Notes: generated by a model not told the origin, from the sequence alone. A DNA stretch of 64,000 nucleotides from Nitrospirota bacterium (GCA_963818475.1 CAWFSF010000005.1:288001-352000), one strand, 5' to 3'; shown: positions 1 to 9,709, counted from the stretch's first letter. Made by a program: numbers and translations.

Positions 1-708
1 ATATAAACTGACGGACTCGGAACTACCAACTGCTAAGGTATTATCATCAAACCATTCAGAATAGTAGCCTTCGCCAACTTTAATTAGATTGTCATTAGAA
101 TTTGTCATATTTTTCAAATAAACATTCCACGCTCCGGAGGCAAAAGAAATTCTTCGGCCATCTGGAGACCACTTGGGAGCTGAATATTGTTTAGGACTGT
201 CTACTGTCAGGTCCTCTTTTCGAAGTGACTTAAGATCAATGAGCCAAAGATGCCTAACCGTTTCTTTGTAAGCTTTGTTAAATGAAGAGGTATGGAATTC
301 TTTAAGAGAATTGCTTATAAAAACAACTTTGTCGTTTGCAGGGGAAATACTCGGATTGCTCATGTCAGTTTCTAAATCAGTTAAATATTTTTCCCTCCAA
401 GTTGCGATGTCCAATTCGTACATCTTTTTGAAATTTCTCACGTAAACTATTTTTGTTAAATCATACGATACACAATAATTAGTTATATCCTTTTTAGCAG
501 TCAATTTCTCTTGGGCCCTTCTAGGCATATCCATAAGCCAGATGTCACCATTTTTCAGATAAAGTAATTTTTTCTGCAATGTTGTTTTAGACGTGCGTAC
601 ATTCTTCGAGCTTTGTATGCTCGCAGCGTAACAGATCGACATGGAACAAATTAAAGCAGTCATAACAGTAACCATTGGCATAAATGTCTTTCGAGTTAAC
701 ATTTTCAT
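1..708 (-). CDS. Secreted TolB-like/PD40 beta-propeller protein, 3' end runs off the window; candidate immunity protein
   Basis: Manually translated from ATG 708 (GGGAGA RBS): MKMLTRKTFMPMVTVMTALICSMSICYA (signal peptide)...NPSISPANDKVVF...YSAPKWSPDGRRISFAS (PD40 repeats). AT-rich; absent from the ORF track because it is open-ended. Confidence 0.8.
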   Translation of the reverse strand, partial: MKMLTRKTFMPMVTVMTALICSMSICYAASIQSSKNVRTSKTTLQKKLLYLKNGDIWLMDMPRRAQEKLTAKKDITNYCVSYDLTKIVYVRNFKKMYELDIATWREKYLTDLETDMSNPSISPANDKVVFISNSLKEFHTSSFNKAYKETVRHLWLIDLKSLRKEDLTVDSPKQYSAPKWSPDGRRISFASGAWNVYLKNMTNSNDNLIKVGEGYYSEWFDDNTLAVGSSESVSLY

Positions 709-727
709 TCTCCCATGAGATGTTGAA

Positions 728-3700
728 CTAAGGATTTCTTATAGTCCCATAACCAACGAATAGTTCACCTGCATAACAGCTTGTACATGGTTTATTTGCA
801 AGTGCTGAATTTAGTCTTTTTCCGGTAAGAGGCGAAATATTTACATTAGGATATTCTGTATTCAAGTATTTAATCCCAACGCCTGAATTACTCGCATCAA
901 TAAATACCACTGTTGCGTCGTCGGTGGTTGATGGCGCAATTACAATTCCCTCATGACTTAATGGATGATTCGGACCTGTGGTATCGTTGAAGAAAACGAT
1001 GTCGCCGACTAAAGGGGCACGATCACCTACACCACCATTTAAGTTTTGTGTAACTGCAATCAAATAATGATAATAGACACCATTACCATTATAAAGTAAG
1101 CCATATTGTTGCATCAGATTATTGCCGCAATTTGCCCACTCATCTAAGCATATACCTGCTGCCCAATATGCTTTCCGCACCAAACCAACACATTGGCCAA
1201 CCTGCTGATAGCCTTGCCCTAAGAGATCTGCGGCTGTCAAAACGATTGGCTCGCCTTCCTCAAGTGATGCGGCTGTAGCAATTGTATTCCTCGTTTGAGG
1301 ATCAATCCCGTCTTTCACCCATCCAAGTGGTTCTTTATGAAGCTGAACAATTTGCATCCCATCTTTTTTATTCGTACTATCACTACCCGCCAGTCCGCCG
1401 CTGATCATATAGGCACCGGCTCCGGTAAGGGTATCCTTGATAATATATCCCGCCCCGCTCCAGTCATTTATCTGCACGTTCGTCTGAGAGATAGTCACAT
1501 TTTTACCGGCGTTGACTGCATTCTGGACGTCTGTTTTGATATCCGAACTTACCTGTAATGTTGGAAGGATCTGGCTGATGTTTGCTGCATTGATGTGCTG
1601 AATCGGAATCCCACTCGTTGCCGCTGTCTGCAACGCTTTGACAGCCGAGACAGATAAGAATGCATCGATCTTCTCATAGATGTCATGCTCGTAGTACGAG
1701 CCTACCAGCCCATGCACATCCATGTATGCCAGCTCTTTATTCGCGTCCCCATCTCGCGCTGATACGATTATTCCGGTCATCGCAACGTCCATGTTTATAC
1801 CGGACGGCATAGCTGATTTCGGCAAGCCAAATACGCTTGAAACTGTAAGGGTGAATGATGTAATTCCCTCGGAAATAGTTCTAGCGATTACCGTGTTGAA
1901 GAGCTTGGCGCCGGACTTCTGGACCTTATCGTTCGCAAGAAAATAGGTCGTGGCAAGGATAAACAGATGCTCTCCAATCAAATCGTCTGTTCCGAGCGTA
2001 CCGGCTGTTTGCGATAAGACGTTAGTATTCAACTGGTATCTTCGCTTTCCGAGCACATTCTCATTGATCCCCTGAAGGTCCAGCCCAATGGCATAGTACG
2101 CTCCAGCGAGCAGTTTTTTGTCTCTGGTTTCGGTATTTCCGTTCGGCTGCGTAAACCGCATGGTCAAGCTCTGATCCGCTCCAAGAGTTGTGGCTTCTCC
2201 GGTTAGCTCGATGACACCCTCTACACGGAGTACTGGTTTGAGATTCAACATATACGCTGGCACATCATAGATAAAACCTCCATAATTCGCTATCAAGGTT
2301 TCGTCAGTAGACGTCGCAGGTATGTATGAAACAGTGATCCGCTTTCCTGCTAGTTCCGGGGTGGAAGCGCTATATGAGACATTTGAGCCTGTTGCAGGAT
2401 TCGTGAGGGTGAATGCAACTGTTGCCGCCATTTTGGCAGTGATGCTGGCAAATTTCGCCCCTTGAACAACTGTTATATAGGGCAAAGTAGATGGCAAAAA
2501 ATGATATGTCTCTTGCGTTATCTCACGATAGCCTTTCACATCCACGATTGAAGTGTCAGGCATGTTAGCGTCAAGATAGTTTTGAATTTGACTTTGATAA
2601 TAATGCACAGCGTTCTGGTTCTGGACTTGACTGAGATATGCGTCCTGGCTGAACGGCACGGCTGCAGTGATATCAAAACCGTTTGTGTAAGTGTATTGTT
2701 TGAAGCTGCCGTCCATGGGTATCCAGGTTTTGAGGCTATCATCCATCATGGTGCCTCGGTAGTTGCCGTAAGGAATGTAGGTTTCCACCCAAAAATGCTC
2801 CAATCGAAGTGATTTTATCATGCCGCCTGAAATGATCACACTAACCGGCACATTTCCGCTTGCGATAAAGTTAGCCGCAGCCCTGGCATCCGTGAAACCA
2901 CCTACCCAATTCATCGCTTTATCAATCGGCACCTCAATCGTTCCATAAGCATACTTTGCGGGTAAGTTTGATGTTCTGAGTAAGGCAATCAACAGCGATG
3001 CAGTGTCGATATCATTACACTGTTTTGACTGGAGGCACATGTCCGCGCCCTGGATGCTGCCGTAGGTAGGGACAAATTCAATATTATTCTGCACCCATTC
3101 AAGTATTTTGGTAGGTTTGTTGTCAAGTTGGGCCGCGAGGTCTATGATATCCTGGGTGAACTGTACTTCGGGGGTCTCGGCGAGGTCGTCAGCTGTTGGC
3201 GCGTTTTGCGTCAGCGCGATGAGGAATGTTGATGAATCGGCGAAGGTGAATTGCGGAATTGCTCCCTCACCCCAGCCCTCTCCTCGGACGGGTAGAGGGA
3301 GACCAAGAGATATATCGCTGTCCGGCCCGTTGAATGCAAGCTGAACAGATTTACTGGCCAATGTGGAATGCGGAATGCGGGCTGCGGAATCTACAATCCG
3401 TGTGAATTCAGGCTCAAGCGTGGCCAAATTCTTTATCTTTTTTCCCTGTGGGAAGTCTCTCTCGAATTCCTCTTTTTTCAGTCTCGGTTCGCGCGCCTTG
3501 GTTGTCTTCCGCGCACTGAAAGGAAGATTATTCGGATCGAGCTTCTGATGCTTTGACGGTGCTTTGACCTTTGCAAGATGCAGCCTTACCTTTTCTACTT
3601 TGGCCCTGCGGTCTGATTTGGTCTTTGCCTGCTCCACACCGTCGAGGTTTGCCCTCAGCTCTTTCAGATTATCTTCATAGTGCTTTACGAATTTATAATG

Positions 3701-4087
3701 CCGATCGAGGATCTCTTTCGGAAGCTTTGCGTCTTTAAGCTTCTTCTCCGTGGCGCTGAATTCTTTTTTGAACTCGACATCCGCTGATTCGATGTCTGCC
3801 CTTTTCGCCTTGATGGCATCCCGTTCCCGCGTATCGTCCTCGCCCCTGTCTTCTTTATCCCTGACCTTGTCAACATTCTCCCGGATCCCGTCGAGGGCTT
3901 TTTCAAACCGTTCCTCGGGCCGTCCTTGCCCCTTGCTACTTGCTACTTGATCCTGACTGATTCCCGACTTGCGCGCCTCCCGCTCCGCCGCATACGCAAC
4001 CGCCTGCCATAACGGCAAAAAACTCCAGCAAAAAAAGAAAAGCGTAATGGCTGAGATGTTTCTTAAGACACGATGGAACGTCCGCAT
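728..4087 (-). CDS. Large secreted transglutaminase-like domain protein with C-terminal NlpC/P60 (CHAP-like) domain
   Basis: Signal peptide and coiled coil; TGase-like core (NIEFVPTYGSIQG...DTASLLIALLR...HFWVE...WIPMDGS); C-terminal QCVGLVRKAY...GDIVFF...HEGIV...FIDAS. GGAGGA RBS before ATG 4087. Confidence 0.85.
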   Translation of the reverse strand: MRTFHRVLRNISAITLFFFCWSFLPLWQAVAYAAEREARKSGISQDQVASSKGQGRPEERFEKALDGIRENVDKVRDKEDRGEDDTRERDAIKAKRADIESADVEFKKEFSATEKKLKDAKLPKEILDRHYKFVKHYEDNLKELRANLDGVEQAKTKSDRRAKVEKVRLHLAKVKAPSKHQKLDPNNLPFSARKTTKAREPRLKKEEFERDFPQGKKIKNLATLEPEFTRIVDSAARIPHSTLASKSVQLAFNGPDSDISLGLPLPVRGEGWGEGAIPQFTFADSSTFLIALTQNAPTADDLAETPEVQFTQDIIDLAAQLDNKPTKILEWVQNNIEFVPTYGSIQGADMCLQSKQCNDIDTASLLIALLRTSNLPAKYAYGTIEVPIDKAMNWVGGFTDARAAANFIASGNVPVSVIISGGMIKSLRLEHFWVETYIPYGNYRGTMMDDSLKTWIPMDGSFKQYTYTNGFDITAAVPFSQDAYLSQVQNQNAVHYYQSQIQNYLDANMPDTSIVDVKGYREITQETYHFLPSTLPYITVVQGAKFASITAKMAATVAFTLTNPATGSNVSYSASTPELAGKRITVSYIPATSTDETLIANYGGFIYDVPAYMLNLKPVLRVEGVIELTGEATTLGADQSLTMRFTQPNGNTETRDKKLLAGAYYAIGLDLQGINENVLGKRRYQLNTNVLSQTAGTLGTDDLIGEHLFILATTYFLANDKVQKSGAKLFNTVIARTISEGITSFTLTVSSVFGLPKSAMPSGINMDVAMTGIIVSARDGDANKELAYMDVHGLVGSYYEHDIYEKIDAFLSVSAVKALQTAATSGIPIQHINAANISQILPTLQVSSDIKTDVQNAVNAGKNVTISQTNVQINDWSGAGYIIKDTLTGAGAYMISGGLAGSDSTNKKDGMQIVQLHKEPLGWVKDGIDPQTRNTIATAASLEEGEPIVLTAADLLGQGYQQVGQCVGLVRKAYWAAGICLDEWANCGNNLMQQYGLLYNGNGVYYHYLIAVTQNLNGGVGDRAPLVGDIVFFNDTTGPNHPLSHEGIVIAPSTTDDATVVFIDASNSGVGIKYLNTEYPNVNISPLTGKRLNSALANKPCTSCYAGELFVGYGTIRNP

Positions 4088-4470
4088 GATTCCTCCACTG
4101 ATAGAGTGCTGCAAAAACACGATAGCGCAACTAAATGCTGAAAATGTGCGTCAGGGTAGCATAGTCTTTGTTACTTGTCACCTGTCAGAAGTGACAGGTG
4201 TGCTGAGCAGTGATAAGGAGGTTCTATGACAGGTGAGACGAAAAAGAAGTGCGCGTTACTTGTATCATGAAGGCGGGTTTAGTGTCAATCACGACGATGG
4301 GGTAATTTCAGACTAATGATAATCACAACTTTAGAAGGCAGTCATGGCATCAATGATCGATACAGGTGAGACACGTCGCGGTGTTTTCTGCCATAAAAAA
4401 ACCTGAGAATCTGTACGACTCTCAGGTTTGCGTTTTTTCTGATCCGCTCACGGCGGACCGGTCAGGTGCC

Positions 4471-4668
4471 TCAGCCGCCGCCCCAGGAATGGCCGCCGCC
4501 GATGCTGCAGCTTGAACCCGAACCGGCTGAAGAGAACTTGGATACGAGTTTTTTTGCCTTCTTCTGCTCGCAATAGGGGCAGACCGTATCTTCTTCCTTT
4601 GCGGTGATCGACTGGAGCAGCACGAAATCCTTGCCGCAGGCGCCGCACAGATATTCATAAAATGGCAT
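4471..4668 (-). CDS. FmdB-family zinc-ribbon protein (possible Sec read-through to 4462)
   Basis: MPFYEYLCGACG...CPYC motif; GGAGG RBS. Confidence 0.85.
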   Translation of the reverse strand: MPFYEYLCGACGKDFVLLQSITAKEEDTVCPYCEQKKAKKLVSKFSSAGSGSSCSIGGGHSWGGG

Positions 4669-4703
4669 ATTCAATCCTCCTTCTGACAAAACTGCACTGA
4701 AAA

Positions 4704-4928
4704 CTAGCATTTACAGCGCTCCCGTGCACCGAAAGCGTAGAGTATAATACTCATGGGACAGAACCCTGTCAAGGCAAAAATCATGAGCATAACGCCCACC
4801 AGGCCCGTAAAGATGAACCATCCCGGGTGTACAAAATACCCCAGGAGCACGCTCCCGAGCACGAAGATCCCGGCCAGCAGCCGGATGAACCGCTCCAGAT
4901 ACCACGTTTTTGTGTCTGCGATGAACAT
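4704..4928 (-). CDS. DUF2892/YgaP-like membrane protein
   Basis: ERFIRLLAG...GFCPMSIIL motif; AGGAGG RBS. Confidence 0.85.
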   Translation of the reverse strand: MFIADTKTWYLERFIRLLAGIFVLGSVLLGYFVHPGWFIFTGLVGVMLMIFALTGFCPMSIILYAFGARERCKC

Positions 4929-5038
4929 GTTGTCACCTCCTGTTGTATTTCGGATTTCGGATTTCGGATTGCGGATCAACTTCAATGCCACAGTTTTTAA
5001 TTCGAACCCTGCTACTCTGACCCCTGTACTCCTGTCTT

Positions 5039-5467
5039 TTAAAGGCATGCGAACGGCGCTTTCCTGTCCTTTGATGCGAATCGAGAATAGTTGGGGGACG
5101 TGAAGATGTCCATCATCATGTGCCTGCTTATCACTCCCACGTACTTTCCGTCCTTCACCACAGCGACTACGGAGCAGCAGCTTTTCAGAAGCAGCGAAAT
5201 GATATCCGGGGTCGGCGTTGTTGCCTCCGCGATGATCGGCGCGGGAACCATGATAGCCGAAGCCTGGATACAGTCCAGGTCCCGATCCTCTCTGATCACG
5301 TCCAGAATGGCATTTTCCGATACAACGCCCAGAAGCTTCCGGTCGGCGTCCACGACCGGCATTGCAGCCAGTCCCGACGATATGATCTTCATCGCCACTT
5401 CACGCGCCGTGGTATCCGGCGCGACGCTGATTTTTTCCCGCATAATATGCCACGCTGCTATTGTCAT
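5039..5467 (-). CDS. CBS-domain pair protein
   Basis: Two CBS repeats (MPVVD...LLGVVSE; VAVVKDGKYVGVISR). Confidence 0.85.
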   Translation of the reverse strand: MTIAAWHIMREKISVAPDTTAREVAMKIISSGLAAMPVVDADRKLLGVVSENAILDVIREDRDLDCIQASAIMVPAPIIAEATTPTPDIISLLLKSCCSVVAVVKDGKYVGVISRHMMMDIFTSPNYSRFASKDRKAPFACL

Positions 5468-5548
5468 GTTCTTTCCTCCTTGAATGCTGGGGTCAGGGTA
5501 TTCCCTGCTACTTGACCACTGGCTACTGTGCTCCTTGACCCTGCCTTG

Positions 5549-6290
5549 TTAAAATCTCTCCCACTGCTTCGTATCAGGATTAAAGGCCTCGCTGAAAGCC
5601 GTGACCTCCTGCTGCAGTCCCACGTCGTAGCCCTCGTTCAGCCCGACAGTTGACCAGCATTTTGATCGAGCGAAGCGAGCTCAAACTGTTTCCGGCGATG
5701 CGAAGAGCAAGTTTGTTCGCCTCTTCGTCGAGCGTCTCGGTCGGAACGACCTTGTTCACCAGCCCGATGCGGAGCGCCTCTTCGGCATCAACGGTCCGGC
5801 CGGTGAACAGCAGTTCCTTTGCCCTGCCGATGCCGACGGTCTTGGCGAGCCGCTGTGACGACCCGAAGATGGGCGGCACGCCGAACTGCGCTTCGGGGAA
5901 CGAAAAGACCGCGTCCGCAGCCGCGATCCTGATGTCCGCGGCAAGCGCAAGACCCAGGCCGGCGCCCGTGGTCTCGCCTTTGACCGCGGCGATCACCGGG
6001 ACATCCAGGTTCTCGATGTGTTTGAGCAGGTTGTAGCCCACTTCGGCAAAATGGCCCGCTTCGTCCTTGGTCATTTTGACGAAGCCTGCATAATCGATCC
6101 CTGCTGAGAAATTCCTGCCCCGGGAGGCGATCAGGACCACGCGAAGGTCTGCCTGGGCAGCGTACACTTCGCTTACGGTCTTGTTCAGCTTCGACAGGAC
6201 CTCCTTGTCCAGATAATTGACCGGCGGGTTATCGATCGTGACCGTGCTGATCCAGTCTTTGCATTCTATGGTGACGCATGTGTTTGACAT
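5549..6290 (-). CDS. Enoyl-CoA hydratase/isomerase (crotonase) family protein; probable indel near the C-terminus
   Basis: PPVN, FSAGID, PVIAAVKG...GAGLGLALAADIR, FPEAQFG motifs. An alternative frame continues GLNEGYDVGLQQEVTAFSEAF to TAA at 5549. Confidence 0.85.
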
Positions 6291-6411: not shown

Positions 6412-9400
6412 CTAAGTCGCTTCCCAATGCTTCTTTTCCACCATGTAGTAGAACAGCGGCACCACCACCAGCGTCAGCGCCGTTGACGCCAGCATCCCGA
6501 AGATGAGCGCCAGGGCCAGGCCCGACCAGACCGGGTCGGTCACGATCACGGCGGAGCCGAGGATCGCGGCCGCGGCAGTGAGCACGATCGGCCTGAAACG
6601 GATGGCGCCTGCCTCGAGCAGCGCCTGCTCCAGCGGCAGGCCTTCCTGCTTCTTGTCCAGGATGAACTCAAGCAGCACGATCGAGTTCCTGACCACGATG
6701 CCCGCCAGGGCGATGACGCCGATCATGGACGTGGCGCTGAAGTAGACGTTCGTCATGGCAAAGCCCGGCATGATGCCGATCATCGAAAGCGGGATCGACG
6801 CCATGATGACCACGGGAATGGTGAACGACCGGAACCTGCCGACCAGCAGCAGATAGATCGCGATCAGGGCCACGCCCATGGCAGCGCCCAGGTCGCGGAA
6901 CACGTCAAGGGTCAGCTTCATCTCGCCGTCCCACTTGATCTTGTAACCGTCAGGCACAGGGTGCTTCCAGAGATAGCGCATCATATCGATCACGGCATAG
7001 ACCTGGCTTCGGTCTCCCATCTCGGCGTACACATAGGTCACGGGTTCAAGGTTCTTGTGATGGACGGCCTTGTCCATCTCTGCGGGCACGATCGTTACGA
7101 GCGACGAGAGCGGCACCTGGCTGCCCTGCGGGTTCGAAAGAAAGACCTTGTCCATGTCCGACAGGCCCGTGCGGTCGCTTTTCGACAGCCTGAGCATGAT
7201 CGCCACGGGGTCCTTTGCTGCCGGCTGGTGCAGGGTCGATACTGCCATGCCGGCTACGGATATCCGCAGGGTCTGGACGATCTGCTCCGTCGAGATGCCC
7301 ATGAGCGCAGCCTTTTCCTTGTTCACGATAAGCTGGTACTTCTCCTGCTTCTCCTTCACGCTGTCGTCGATGTCCACGACCTCGCTGGTCTTTGCAAAGA
7401 GCGTCCTGATGTCCGCGGCGATCTCGCGCTGCTTGTCGTAATCGGGCCCGTAGATCTCGGCCACCACCGTGGCGCGGACCGGAGGGCCCGGAGGGTCTTC
7501 AACCAGCTTGATGTTCGCGCCGTATTCCTGTCCCAGCTTTGTGACGGCGGGCCTGAGCTTCAGCACGAGCTTCTCGCTTGAGGTCGTGCGGTCTTCCTTG
7601 TCGATCAGGTTCACGCGGATATCGGCAAAGTGGCTTGCCTCGCGGAACGCGCCTCCCCGGAGCAGTCCGTTAAAGTCCATGACCGAACCGGTGCCCACAA
7701 AGGTCTCGTAGTCCCTGACCTCGGGAATGCGCTGGAGATGGTCGCCGACAGCACGCGCGACACGGTCCGTGTTCTCGATCACCGTGCCTGCCGGCATATC
7801 GATGGACACCAGGAAGGTGTTCTTGTTCGCCTTGGGCAGCATGCGGAACTTCACCAACTGGAACAGGGGAAAGGTCATGGCGACAACAAAAACCACCATG
7901 ATGATGCCCAGGAATATTTTTCGCTTTTTTGCGTTCACCAGCAGCGGCGCAAGCACCTTTTTGTACAGAAGATAGCTTCTCGTCTCTTCGAGCGGCTGCA
8001 TCTTTTCGCCATGATGATCGGCCTTCATCAGCCGGTAGCTCGCCCAGGGCGTCACCACGAAGGCCACCACGAGCGAGACGATCATCGCCACGGGCACGTT
8101 AAAAGGTATGGGCATCATGTAAGGCCCCATCATTCCCGTCACAAAGGCCATGGGGATGAAGGCGAGCACCACGGTCAGGGTCGCCAGGATCGTGGGCATG
8201 CCGATCTCGTTCACCGCCATGATCGCAGCCTGGAGCCGCGAGTGCTGCTGCAGCTTGTAGTGGCGGTGAATGTTCTCGACCACCACGATGGCGTCATCCA
8301 CCAGAAGCCCCAGAGACAGGATGAGCGCAAAGAGCGTGATCCGGTTGATGGTCTGGCCCGCCACCATGCCGATGGCAAGGGTAAGGAACAGGGTCAGCGG
8401 GATGGCAAGCGCCACAATGGCAGCCTCGCGCCATCCGAGGGTGAAGAACAACAGGACGATCACCACGATGATCGAGACCACCAGATGGAACACGAGCTCG
8501 TTCACGGCATCGTTGGCGGTCTTTGCCGTCATTCCTCGTGACCGTGACACTGATCCCCGCAGGGATACTGGTCTTCTTGAGCTCATCGAGCTTGGTCAGA
8601 ATTTCGCCCGAGATCTGAACGGCGTTCAGCTTCTGCCGTTTCGCTAAGGCCACGGTCACAGCAGGCCGTTCGGCCCCGTTGCCCCCGGCCGCGAGGCCCT
8701 CATGGGCATGCGCGCCAAAGGCGATGCGCGTCAGCTTCACCGTCTCTTCGAAGCCGTCTGAGACATCGGCCACGTCGTTCAGATAGACCGGCTTGTTGTT
8801 CGCCACGCCTACGACCGCGTTCTTCAGTTCGCTCGCACTGCTAAAGAACCCGCCGGTCTCGAGGGTCAGTTTTTTGCTCCCCTGCTCCAGGTCTCCCGAG
8901 AGCAGGTTCGCGTTCGACGCCGTGATGGCGCCGGCGATCTGGAGCACCGACAAGCCGTAGCCTGAAGCGCGCAGGGGATCGAGCGTCACGCGCACCTGAC
9001 GGCTCCGGCCGCCGATCACGACCGTGTTGCCCACTCCCGGCACCTTGCGCAGTTCATCGAGCGCATGATCGGCAACGAGCCGGAGCTGCGCGTCGTCATA
9101 GGTTGATCCGGGCGCGGCCGAGAACGTGATTGCCACGATCGGCACATCGTCCACATCAATCGGTTTCACCAGCGGCTGGGATGCTCCCGGAGGCGCGAAA
9201 TCCATGTTGGACATGAGCTTGTCGTAGAGCTTCACCAGCGACCGCTCCTTGTCCTGGCCCACGAAGAACTTCACCGTGACCATGGCCATGGAGTTCATCG
9301 AGACCGAGTACACGTCCTCGACGCCCGGGATCTCCCAGAGCTTTGCCTCGAGCTTTTTTGAAACCAGCTCCTCGACCTCTTTGGCGCTCGCGCCGGGCAG

Positions 9401-9567
9401 CATGACCATCACGTTCGCCGCAGGAACCACGTTATCTGCGGGTTCTCTTCGCGCGGCGTGAACCAGAGCGCGAACAGCCCCAGGATCGTCGTTGCCGCCA
9501 TGAGCAGCACGGTGAGCTGGGAATTGATGAAGTACTGCGTTATCTTGCCGCTGATGTTGAGTTTCAT
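6412..9567 (-). CDS. RND efflux permease, AcrB/CusA superfamily (split by at least 2 indels)
   Basis: Fragments 8294-9643 and 6412-8586: PREENPQI, GLLVDDAIVVVENI, RFRPIVLTAAA. Start MKLNISG at 9567. Confidence 0.9.
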
Positions 9568-9606
9568 TGTTCACACCTTTATATATACTAAAGCCGAAGC
9601 CAAATC

Positions 9607-9709
9607 TTTTGACACTGATCACGGCGGATTTACTTATGATCAAGGCGGATTAAGATCTTGACGTATCAGTGAAAATCATATTTTTATCCGACCTGATCCG
9701 TGTCAAAGA
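9607..9709. repeat. Member of the TTTGACAC(G/T)GAT...ATC(C/A)GTGTCAAA hairpin family
   Basis: Related copies at about 12984-13060, 26623-26705 and 51557-51649. Confidence 0.65.

Follow-up and report, generated by a model that had tools for sequence, protein, structure and literature searches.

A Cys-less transglutaminase-like scaffold with exchangeable tails in a Nitrospirota bacterium: a probable toxin-immunity module

Why would a bacterium export a transglutaminase-like protein that has lost its catalytic cysteine and ends in an NlpC/P60-type hydrolase domain? This question is raised by a locus at the start of a 64,000-nt stretch of DNA from a Nitrospirota bacterium (GCA_963818475.1 CAWFSF010000005.1:288001-352000; below, the window means this whole stretch and C5 its contig), where a scaffold-toxin gene for an 1119-residue protein is followed on the minus strand by a gene for a beta-propeller protein. 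We consider it probable that this locus belongs to a large family of Sec-dependent polymorphic toxins, as one of its toxin-immunity modules. This reading follows from features that were observed directly, namely the architecture of a conserved body with a variable end, the loss of the cysteine, the breaks at the junction, the orphan cassettes, the neighbours matched to the tails and a compositional break towards AT-rich tails, together with a link to RHS proteins.

An uninterrupted frame at 728..4120 on the minus strand encodes 1130 residues from a GTG codon, and the database form of the protein (P0001) begins at the ATG at 4087 (MRTFHRV...), which is the likely start of the gene. The 1119 residues read from there, with a signal or anchor helix at their beginning, agree with the secreted protein of ~1120 residues proposed in a preliminary description made from the sequence alone. 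Residue numbers throughout are those of P0001. The locus is composed as follows:

731..4087, minus strand: scaffold-plus-toxin coding sequence, 1119 residues; stop at 728-730; the in-frame GTG upstream at 4120 would give 1130 residues
3986..4087, minus strand: signal peptide or anchor helix, residues 1-34, with a basic N-region, a hydrophobic helix and an AYA/AE site
3566..3919, minus strand: four long helices, residues 57-174; model pLDDT 82-90, weak cytochrome b562-like profile matches
3203-3550, minus strand: low-confidence linker in the AlphaFold2 model, residues 180-295
2678..3190, minus strand: transglutaminase-like domain without catalytic Cys, residues 300-470, from Pfam, the profile match to 3isr and Foldseek; D359 codon at 3011-3013
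1448..2665, minus strand: conserved alpha/beta middle region, residues 475-880; model pLDDT 85.4, no clear solved relative
1394..1447, minus strand: junction motif YIIKDTLTGAGAYMISGG, residues 881-898, kept in 120/120 best homologues
1394-1423, minus strand: GAGAYMISGG within the junction, residues 889-898
1253..1393, minus strand: helical linker (LAGSDSTNK...DPQTRNTIATAA), residues 899-945, common to NlpC/P60-type tails
731..1252, minus strand: NlpC/P60-type domain, residues 946-1119; Cys966 codon at 1190-1192, His1045 at 953-955, Asp1064 at 896-898; GC 0.42
1..708, minus strand: PD40/DPP-IV-type beta-propeller gene, candidate immunity gene, first 236 of 303 codons; the rest lies at C5 287797-288000

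Exchangeable tails behind a constant junction

With residues 300-930 as query, 960 database proteins were found at E<=1e-3. The junction, which reads Y[IV][IV]xDPxTG[AS]GAYMISGG across the family, was kept in every one of the 120 best homologues. Behind it, these homologues carry 116 tails of at least 60 residues, which fall into 35 unrelated BLAST clusters and sit on cores that are 40-85% identical. The tails comprise 48 that are NlpC/P60-like, of several subtypes, seven that are SLT-like (lytic transglycosylase; ES...GxMQI) and a remaining 61 in 33 clusters, 57 of which have at least two hydrophobic segments. The preliminary description had proposed to see whether C-termini and downstream genes vary after GAGAY.ISGG; both do, and the neighbours change with the tail. 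A Pfam scan of 64 tails found NLPC_P60/CHAP in 11, SLT in one (a weak match, with propellers as neighbours) and Tox-ART-HYD1 in two, below the cut-off and both in a cluster of six tails. One orphan tail gave a phospholipase A2 match, likewise below the cut-off, and 46 of the 64 tails belonged to no Pfam family.

Comparison with individual relatives showed where identity falls. The nearest relative (P0002) is 80-95% identical to the window protein over residues 300-900, 45% identical at residue 921 and 25-35% identical past residue 980. The best tail matches (47-49%) sit on cores merely 54-56% identical to that of the window protein, and the closest cores (81-84%) are absent from the 25 best tail matches. 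Similarity of the tail does not go along with similarity of the core. In a metagenome scan for close relatives, the sole 84% relative (L073) stops at residue 761, before the junction, where its contig ends.

Five loci (L001, L011, L035, L053 and L069) hold orphan cassettes 3' of full genes. These begin near residue 789 and consist of the last ~110 constant residues with the junction, followed by a different tail and its own small gene. Up to the junction, the orphan is 95% identical to the main gene in L011 and 80% identical in L035, and beyond it the two are unrelated. The break in the L001 orphan lies ~45 residues past the junction, at the end of the linker common to NlpC/P60-type tails, and it is at this same linker end that the window protein parts from its relatives. 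Zero orphan cassettes were seen in the window's own locus, just a truncated second propeller gene.

The transglutaminase-like domain, the scaffold and the tail

Pfam assigned the domain that opens the confident part of the scaffold to Transglut_core (E 7.3e-10, 39.5 bits, cut-off 23). When the family profile was aligned with PDB entry 3isr, the catalytic Cys of GVCRDF fell on D359, residue three in C-N-D-I-D. Of the 199 family sequences, four have a gap in this column; the other 195 have Ala (89), Asp (87), Ser (18) or Gly (one), and never Cys. N358 and D361 are present in 195 of 195, H431 in 190 of 199 and D459 in 198 of 199 sequences. The preliminary description had read CNDID as an Asp in place of the catalytic Cys with His and Asp retained, and the loss proves to be family-wide. 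In a Foldseek search with the full-length model, transglutaminases appeared only as weak rows (E ~0.02 at rmsd >20 A), with 3isr at probability 1.0.

A shifted nucleophile at C357, two residues ahead of the lost one, was considered and rejected because that column holds Cys in just 115 of 195 sequences and Gly in 80 (four gaps). The column of C351 is similarly mixed, with Cys in 124, Thr in 71 and four gaps. Partial conservation of both positions points to a facultative disulfide and less to a catalytic residue. The invariant residues N358, D361, E430, W455 and D459 suggest that a binding pocket has been retained, as do the kept polar residues in general. Section 19 of Zhang et al. 2012 (PMC3482391) proposes that an inactive transglutaminase domain serves to anchor the toxin through peptide binding; binding of peptides or cell wall by the dead domain described here would agree with that role.

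Upstream of this domain, the N-terminus, MRTFHRVLRNISAITLFFFCWSFLPLWQAVAYA followed by AE, resembles a Sec signal peptide or signal anchor. Residues 1-34 are unusually conserved across the family (consensus ...ITLFFFCWTYxPLY..AYAA, with F19 and A33 each at >=90%), which suggests that, beyond targeting to Sec, they serve to sort or anchor the protein. The AlphaFold2 model of the full-length protein, built with 72 relatives, has a mean pLDDT of 80.6. It runs from the four long helices (57-174) through the low-confidence linker (180-295) to a compact, confident block from residue 300 to ~900, a helical linker and a C-terminal alpha/beta domain. Downstream of the transglutaminase-like domain, the middle region has no recognisable fold, a search outcome that is no proof of a new fold. 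Foldseek of its model (m005ccf3afc34, pLDDT 85.4) against the PDB returned zero matches at E<=0.001, and with VIA-align wide the best Z was 6.6, no chain reaching Z>=8 and the rows being unrelated helical or KH-like proteins. An ESM Atlas look-up of residues 475-900 was uninformative (best score 0.85, to unnamed clusters). The last ~110 residues of the region, from ~789, are the homology block common to the orphan cassettes.

For the tail, the family profile matches three solved NlpC/P60 hydrolases, 9ubf, 4fdy and 4hpe (E 1.3e-4 to 4e-4), in an alignment that puts the QCxGLV Cys and the tHxGIV His in register. Foldseek placed the C-terminus of the model on 9ubf with a probability of 0.98 and a TM score of 0.60 on the target, and related tails exceed the Pfam cut-off (e.g., L001 at 37.7 bits). 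All 28 window-type tails have Cys966 and His1045; at the third position of the triad, 10 have Asp and 18 have His. The Cys-His NlpC/P60-like tip named in the preliminary description is thus borne out by an intact Cys966-His1045-Asp1064 triad and a profile match to solved hydrolases. This tail subtype is rare: 78 of 1.84 billion representatives match it at E<=1e-3 and 15 at E<=1e-10. We examined ten of the 78, including eight of the fifteen best. Eight of the ten bear the family junction or the post-junction linker; in P0126 neither is clear, and P0138 is an ordinary NlpC/P60 lipoprotein.

The possible binding pocket invites another view of the whole protein, as an adhesin or matrix component whose dead transglutaminase-like domain and middle region bind a surface polymer, whose tails fix it in different envelopes, and whose variation is neutral drift of low-constraint ends. 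The five invariant residues and the anchoring by peptide binding envisaged in Zhang et al. 2012 (PMC3482391) would suit such a protein. Drift, however, would not yield an abrupt fall from 95% identity to random exactly at the motif, nor would it produce intact catalytic triads in the tails or neighbours that match them. We hold this alternative to be highly improbable.

Downstream genes and candidate immunity

The propeller gene starts 19 nt (ATG at 708) or 25 nt (ATG at 702) past the toxin stop, the start at 702 being better placed behind a GGGAG. It runs past the start of the window, and the complete gene (C5 287797-288708) encodes 303 residues with a signal-peptide-like N-terminus. The protein matches Pfam DPPIV_N (E 5e-7, 29.1 bits, cut-off 22) and, among PDB profiles, TolB-type propellers at E 1e-9 to 1e-5 (Atu1656 at 1e-9, TolB at 1e-7). 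An AT-rich signal-peptide propeller gene about 20 bp on had been claimed, and with a GC content of 0.36, the spacing above and the DPPIV_N match this is what we found. The family of this propeller is tiny (13 proteins), and its only relatives in the fetched loci trail window-type tails (L002, 41%; L029, 36%). A predicted complex of the tail (residues 925-1119) with the mature propeller scored 0.00 and 0.01 against a mark of 0.32 in runs without controls, scores that weigh neither for nor against binding.

The preliminary description spoke of a single downstream propeller. One does adjoin the toxin gene, but two propeller genes are present. The second lies 90 nt past the first (C5 287041-287706; 13041-13706 in L072, minus strand) and is an open reading frame (ORF) of 221 residues with NHL/SBBP repeats and without a signal peptide. 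From its residue 9 it aligns with residue 43 onward of full-length, signal-peptide-bearing NHL-type neighbours in L003, L002 and L001, which stand beside NlpC/P60-tailed toxins. Judged by this alignment, it is probably a truncated orphan or relic of another immunity gene.

Across the loci, 71 of 73 next ORFs share the strand of the scaffold-toxin gene, and in 58 of the 61 usable pairs the distance to the ORF start is between -100 and +110 nt. Tails with several transmembrane (TM) segments are followed by a small multi-TM ORF in 33 of 38 cases and other tails by a larger ORF with 0-1 TM segments in 18 of 23 (odds ratio 24 for the tail/neighbour TM match), and downstream genes are similar in 11 of 54 tail-similar pairs vs 9 of 1776 other pairs; these counts run over related loci that are not independent, so they are descriptive and overstate the case.

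Where neighbours could be classified, their type varied with that of the tail. NLPC_P60/CHAP tails are accompanied by beta-propellers (NHL, SBBP, PD40, DPPIV_N, six-bladed) in five cases, by a sixth in L009, recognised by its similarity to the neighbour in L050, and by YARHG proteins in two. The neighbours in the Tox-ART-HYD1 tail cluster (HEAT, ARM, propellers) have no signal peptide, as would be expected if the target were cytoplasmic. Most downstream neighbours belong to no Pfam family.

Base composition changes along with the tails. In the window, GC content falls from 0.48 in the core to 0.42 in the tail and 0.36 in the next gene (genome 0.54-0.56). Across the family, it lies below that of the core in 51 of 54 tails and 53 of 54 downstream genes, with medians of 0.485 for the core, 0.398 for the tail and 0.331 downstream. 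The turn to AT-rich DNA that had been placed after the Gly-rich linker is real as a drop in GC, but it begins near window position 1180, ~70 codons past the junction and not right at it.

Known systems, relatives and the accessory giant gene

A polymorphic toxin with an inactive transglutaminase module is known. Section 19 of Zhang et al. 2012 (Biol Direct 7:18; PMC3482391) describes an inactive transglutaminase domain at the N-terminus of Sec-dependent polymorphic toxins, followed by RHS repeats. The family described here resembles that class in its Sec-type N-terminus, in a transglutaminase-like domain that has lost one catalytic residue (the Cys), and in variable C-terminal tails with candidate immunity genes. 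Three relatives (L021, L060 and L030) have the very order of signal peptide, inactive transglutaminase and RHS: in them, scaffold residues 4-897 continue into PKD, PASTA, DUF6531 and 12-23 RHS repeat matches. They come from Geobacteraceae, Geomonas and Smithella. Because the scaffold is fused to RHS in these three proteins, as in the 2012 architecture, the window protein can be placed, by its sequence, among the kin of bona fide polymorphic toxins, as a short form without RHS.

The differences are as clear. The window protein, which has zero Pfam matches to RHS, and most of its relatives lack RHS, PKD or PASTA, so that the tail comes directly past DPxTGAGAYMISGG, and a helical bundle (57-174) and a ~115-residue linker separate the N-terminus from the transglutaminase domain. 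The passages of Zhang et al. 2012 (PMC3482391) on this class name neither the DPxTGAGAYMISGG junction nor an MG2/TED-like neighbour. We found no paper on the RHS-less family, in a search that did not cover subscription journals and supplements, and Figure 5D of PMC3482391 may include relatives. The RHS-less form, its junction motif, the predominance of tails with several TM segments, the neighbours of propeller and YARHG type and the conserved MG2/TED-like partner were likewise found in no paper, supplements and figures not being covered. The preliminary description had called the class little-described; this holds for the RHS-less form, for which no paper was found, and not for inactive-transglutaminase polymorphic toxins as such, which were described in 2012. 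Its central idea, an inactive transglutaminase scaffold carrying a peptidoglycan hydrolase, is supported by the tail exchange and the RHS-fused relatives, with toxicity as a deduction. As a whole, its interpretation stands and its novelty was somewhat overstated, the kind having been described in 2012.

CdiA/CdiI systems and Rhs toxins have a conserved motif at the border between the constant and the toxin part, orphan cassettes, and an immunity gene directly downstream. The present family likewise has orphan cassettes downstream that include the last part of the constant region, and a candidate immunity gene directly behind the toxin gene; its junction is presumably comparable to the VENN motif in CdiA. 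In contrast to CdiA, no TpsA secretion domain, CdiB-like gene or filamentous haemagglutinin repeats belong to the window system, and export of the window protein appears to be Sec-dependent. Neisseria MafB loci combine alternative C-terminal cassettes with immunity genes and a conserved accessory gene. The window family shares with them a signal peptide as its only export signal, a family-specific N-terminal domain, alternative cassettes and an accessory gene, whereas its N-terminal domain is unrelated and its accessory gene lies downstream and encodes a giant MG2/TED-like protein. The MAFB-N domain is listed in the row for the type II secretion system/Sec in Table 1 of PMC3482391, a table whose T5SS row is the one relevant to CdiA.

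For the pair of tail and propeller, the closest parallel is Tse1-Tsi1 of Pseudomonas aeruginosa, an NlpC/P60-type peptidoglycan hydrolase and its periplasmic immunity protein, in which the fold of Tsi1, an incomplete beta-propeller, comes nearest to that of the DPP-IV propeller (PMC3391265). In the window, an NlpC/P60-type tail stands beside a gene for a predicted periplasmic propeller that matches DPPIV_N, which makes the analogy drawn in the preliminary description an apt one. Unlike Tse1, a free-standing type VI secretion (T6SS) effector, the window hydrolase is the tail of an 1119-residue Sec protein, and the PDB profile search gave no similarity of the window propeller to Tsi1.

When one genome per species was scanned, 602 of the 618 pattern matches were confirmed and 71 loci were returned, mostly from Nitrospirota, Geobacterales, Syntrophaceae/Smithella and other Thermodesulfobacteriota, with single records from Nitrospinota, Deferribacteres, Methylobacter and alpha- and betaproteobacteria. 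Many loci hold tandem paralogues. The family occurs patchily and in multiple copies: it is present in 12 of the 41 related genomes, several of which have 4-7 matches, and in only two of five other genomes of the same genus, at <=51% identity. The host genome has three copies. The one on contig C6 (1638471-1641573) has internal stops, a canonical NlpC/P60 tail, and as neighbours a YARHG-type gene of 364 residues (GC 0.38) and its own MG2/TED-like gene, partly identical to that on C5. Over the first ~220 residues it matches the window protein at 72-89% identity and over the core at just 37-47%, which marks it as a mosaic gene. The copy on contig C2 (~554875-560398) is distant (30-38%), with a long tail that includes an NlpC/P60 motif. 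In the host genome, RHS repeats were further matched 98 times, spread over several regions of C5, C1 and C6, and TssC (PF05943) not at all; the organism seems to use secretion-system-independent or other routes for RHS toxins too.

Could the protein nevertheless serve the producer's own wall, as a membrane-anchored periplasmic remodelling hydrolase with the propeller as a TolB-like regulator or partner and the C-termini as differing anchors or wall-binding ends? The Sec-type N-terminus with no secretion genes nearby would allow this, NlpC/P60 and SLT domains are common in housekeeping hydrolases, the nearest solved relatives of the propeller by sequence are TolB and Atu1656, and multi-TM tails could anchor the protein. 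Such a role would not explain why orphan cassettes break at the junction, why 35 unrelated tail clusters occur on cores of 40-85% identity, or why the tails and the neighbours matched to them are AT-rich. ART-like or PLA2-like tails, RHS-fused relatives and the patchy multi-copy occurrence among 41 relatives and within the genus speak against it as well, and we consider it quite unlikely.

Next after the NHL-type ORF lies a giant gene of ~7.8 kb (C5 279258-287054; 5258-13054 in L072), which is present in five frame pieces and has TED/terpenoid-cyclase-like, CarboxypepD_reg, MG2, CARDB and fn3/Ig-type parts. A homologue stands on the same strand in 40 of the 71 loci, usually just past the toxin-immunity pair, and also at the C6 copy. 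Together with this giant, the scaffold protein might guard the envelope of the producer itself against invaders such as predatory bacteria, epibionts or foreign proteases, with the tails used in or at the producer's periplasm instead of reaching distant competitors and the neighbour gene protecting the producer. The presence of the MG2/TED/CarboxypepD_reg-type gene at 40 of 71 loci, as well as at two places in the host genome, the anchor-like conservation of the N-terminal helix and the lack of visible export machinery fit this defensive role. However, no CGEQ-type thioester motif was seen in the TED-like pieces (by eye, not by a search), the RHS-fused relatives and orphan cassettes fit classical inter-bacterial toxins, and the giant gene is absent from many loci, though many of those are short. 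We regard envelope defence as unlikely.

In the toxin-immunity reading, the conserved body, composed of the signal or anchor helix, the helical bundle, the flexible linker, the Cys-less transglutaminase-like domain and the ~400-residue alpha/beta region that ends in DPxTGAGAYMISGG, would be exported by Sec, and the C-terminal toxin beyond the junction would be swapped by recombination. The dead transglutaminase domain and the middle region may hold or present the protein at the envelope. The tail, as an NlpC/P60-type peptidase or amidase, would reach the periplasm of a neighbouring cell and cut the stem peptides of its peptidoglycan, and the periplasmic propeller would protect the producer and its kin by blocking the toxin, as Tsi1 does with Tse1. 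Toxicity of the tail, immunity through the neighbour and a delivery role of the scaffold are what we infer here from sequence.

Several observations weigh against this reading. In 43 of the 54 tail-similar pairs, the downstream genes have no detectable similarity, and the SLT-like tails of L004 and L006 are 53% identical and are followed by dissimilar genes. Taken alone, the window protein stays below the Pfam cut-offs for both CHAP (E 1.4e-3, 19.6 bits, cut-off 26) and NLPC_P60 (E 0.063, 13.7 bits, cut-off 23), and none of the ten examined representatives carries the window-type tail on another delivery scaffold. The multi-TM tails could be membrane anchors and not toxins. No export or delivery genes were recognised among the inspected neighbours of the scaffold-toxin gene, and the T6SS sheath protein TssC (PF05943) had zero matches in the 91%-complete host genome, other T6SS markers not having been searched. 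The conserved giant MG2/TED-like neighbour has no place in a simple toxin-immunity picture, and the non-independence of the association counts belongs here too.

A speculative extension, which we think rather doubtful, would give the giant such a place. The order of scaffold-toxin, immunity gene and giant would then make up a weapon of Nitrospirota and Desulfobacterota that is complete in itself and independent of a T6SS. In it, the giant might aim or display the toxin at the cell surface, the middle region might carry the tail across the outer membrane of the target, and the dozens of unrelated multi-TM tails might form a large stock of new toxins that attack membranes and are paired with small membrane immunity proteins.

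Most of what is known of polymorphic toxins comes from Proteobacteria, Firmicutes and Bacteroidota and involves defined secretion systems. The family described here is large (960 proteins; 602 confirmed stretches), is found mostly in anaerobic sediment or groundwater lineages (Nitrospirota, Geobacterales, Syntrophales-like) and needs just a Sec signal, as far as is visible. Its clean junction offers a route to new toxin and immunity domains, and a middle region without a recognisable fold and a conserved, unexplained partnership with an alpha-macroglobulin-like giant add to its interest. Culturable carriers include Geobacter argillaceus ATCC BAA-1139 (L026), Citrifermentans bremense R1 (L059), Geomonas anaerohicana Red421 (L060) and Methylobacter luteus IMV-B-3098 (L067).

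Some minor observations concern the surroundings of these genes. An AcrB-like transporter gene at window 6412-9643 is split into overlapping ORFs (6412-8586 and 8294-9643); for this split and that of the giant gene, assembly indels are as likely as real pseudogenes, the genome being 91% complete with 6% contamination. An Rfam scan of window 1-6000 gave zero matches, and thus no GEMM-I aptamer. Directly 5' of the scaffold-toxin gene, c-di-GMP-I (GEMM-I, RF01051) aptamers were found in two of 12 Geobacterales loci scanned (cut-off 35), at 5760-5846 in L060 (61.6 bits), which is Geomonas anaerohicana with the RHS form, and at 5835-5915 in L026 (60.8 bits), which is Geobacter argillaceus. A 'transglutaminase-like cysteine protease' is named among GEMM-associated genes in Weinberg et al. 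2007 (PMC1950547). Near Geobacteraceae loci, group II intron domains were matched at 10691-10764 in L026 (57.1 bits) and at 1076-1150 in L017 (41.9 bits), and four tRNA genes (4653-5056) lie just 5' of the L060 gene.

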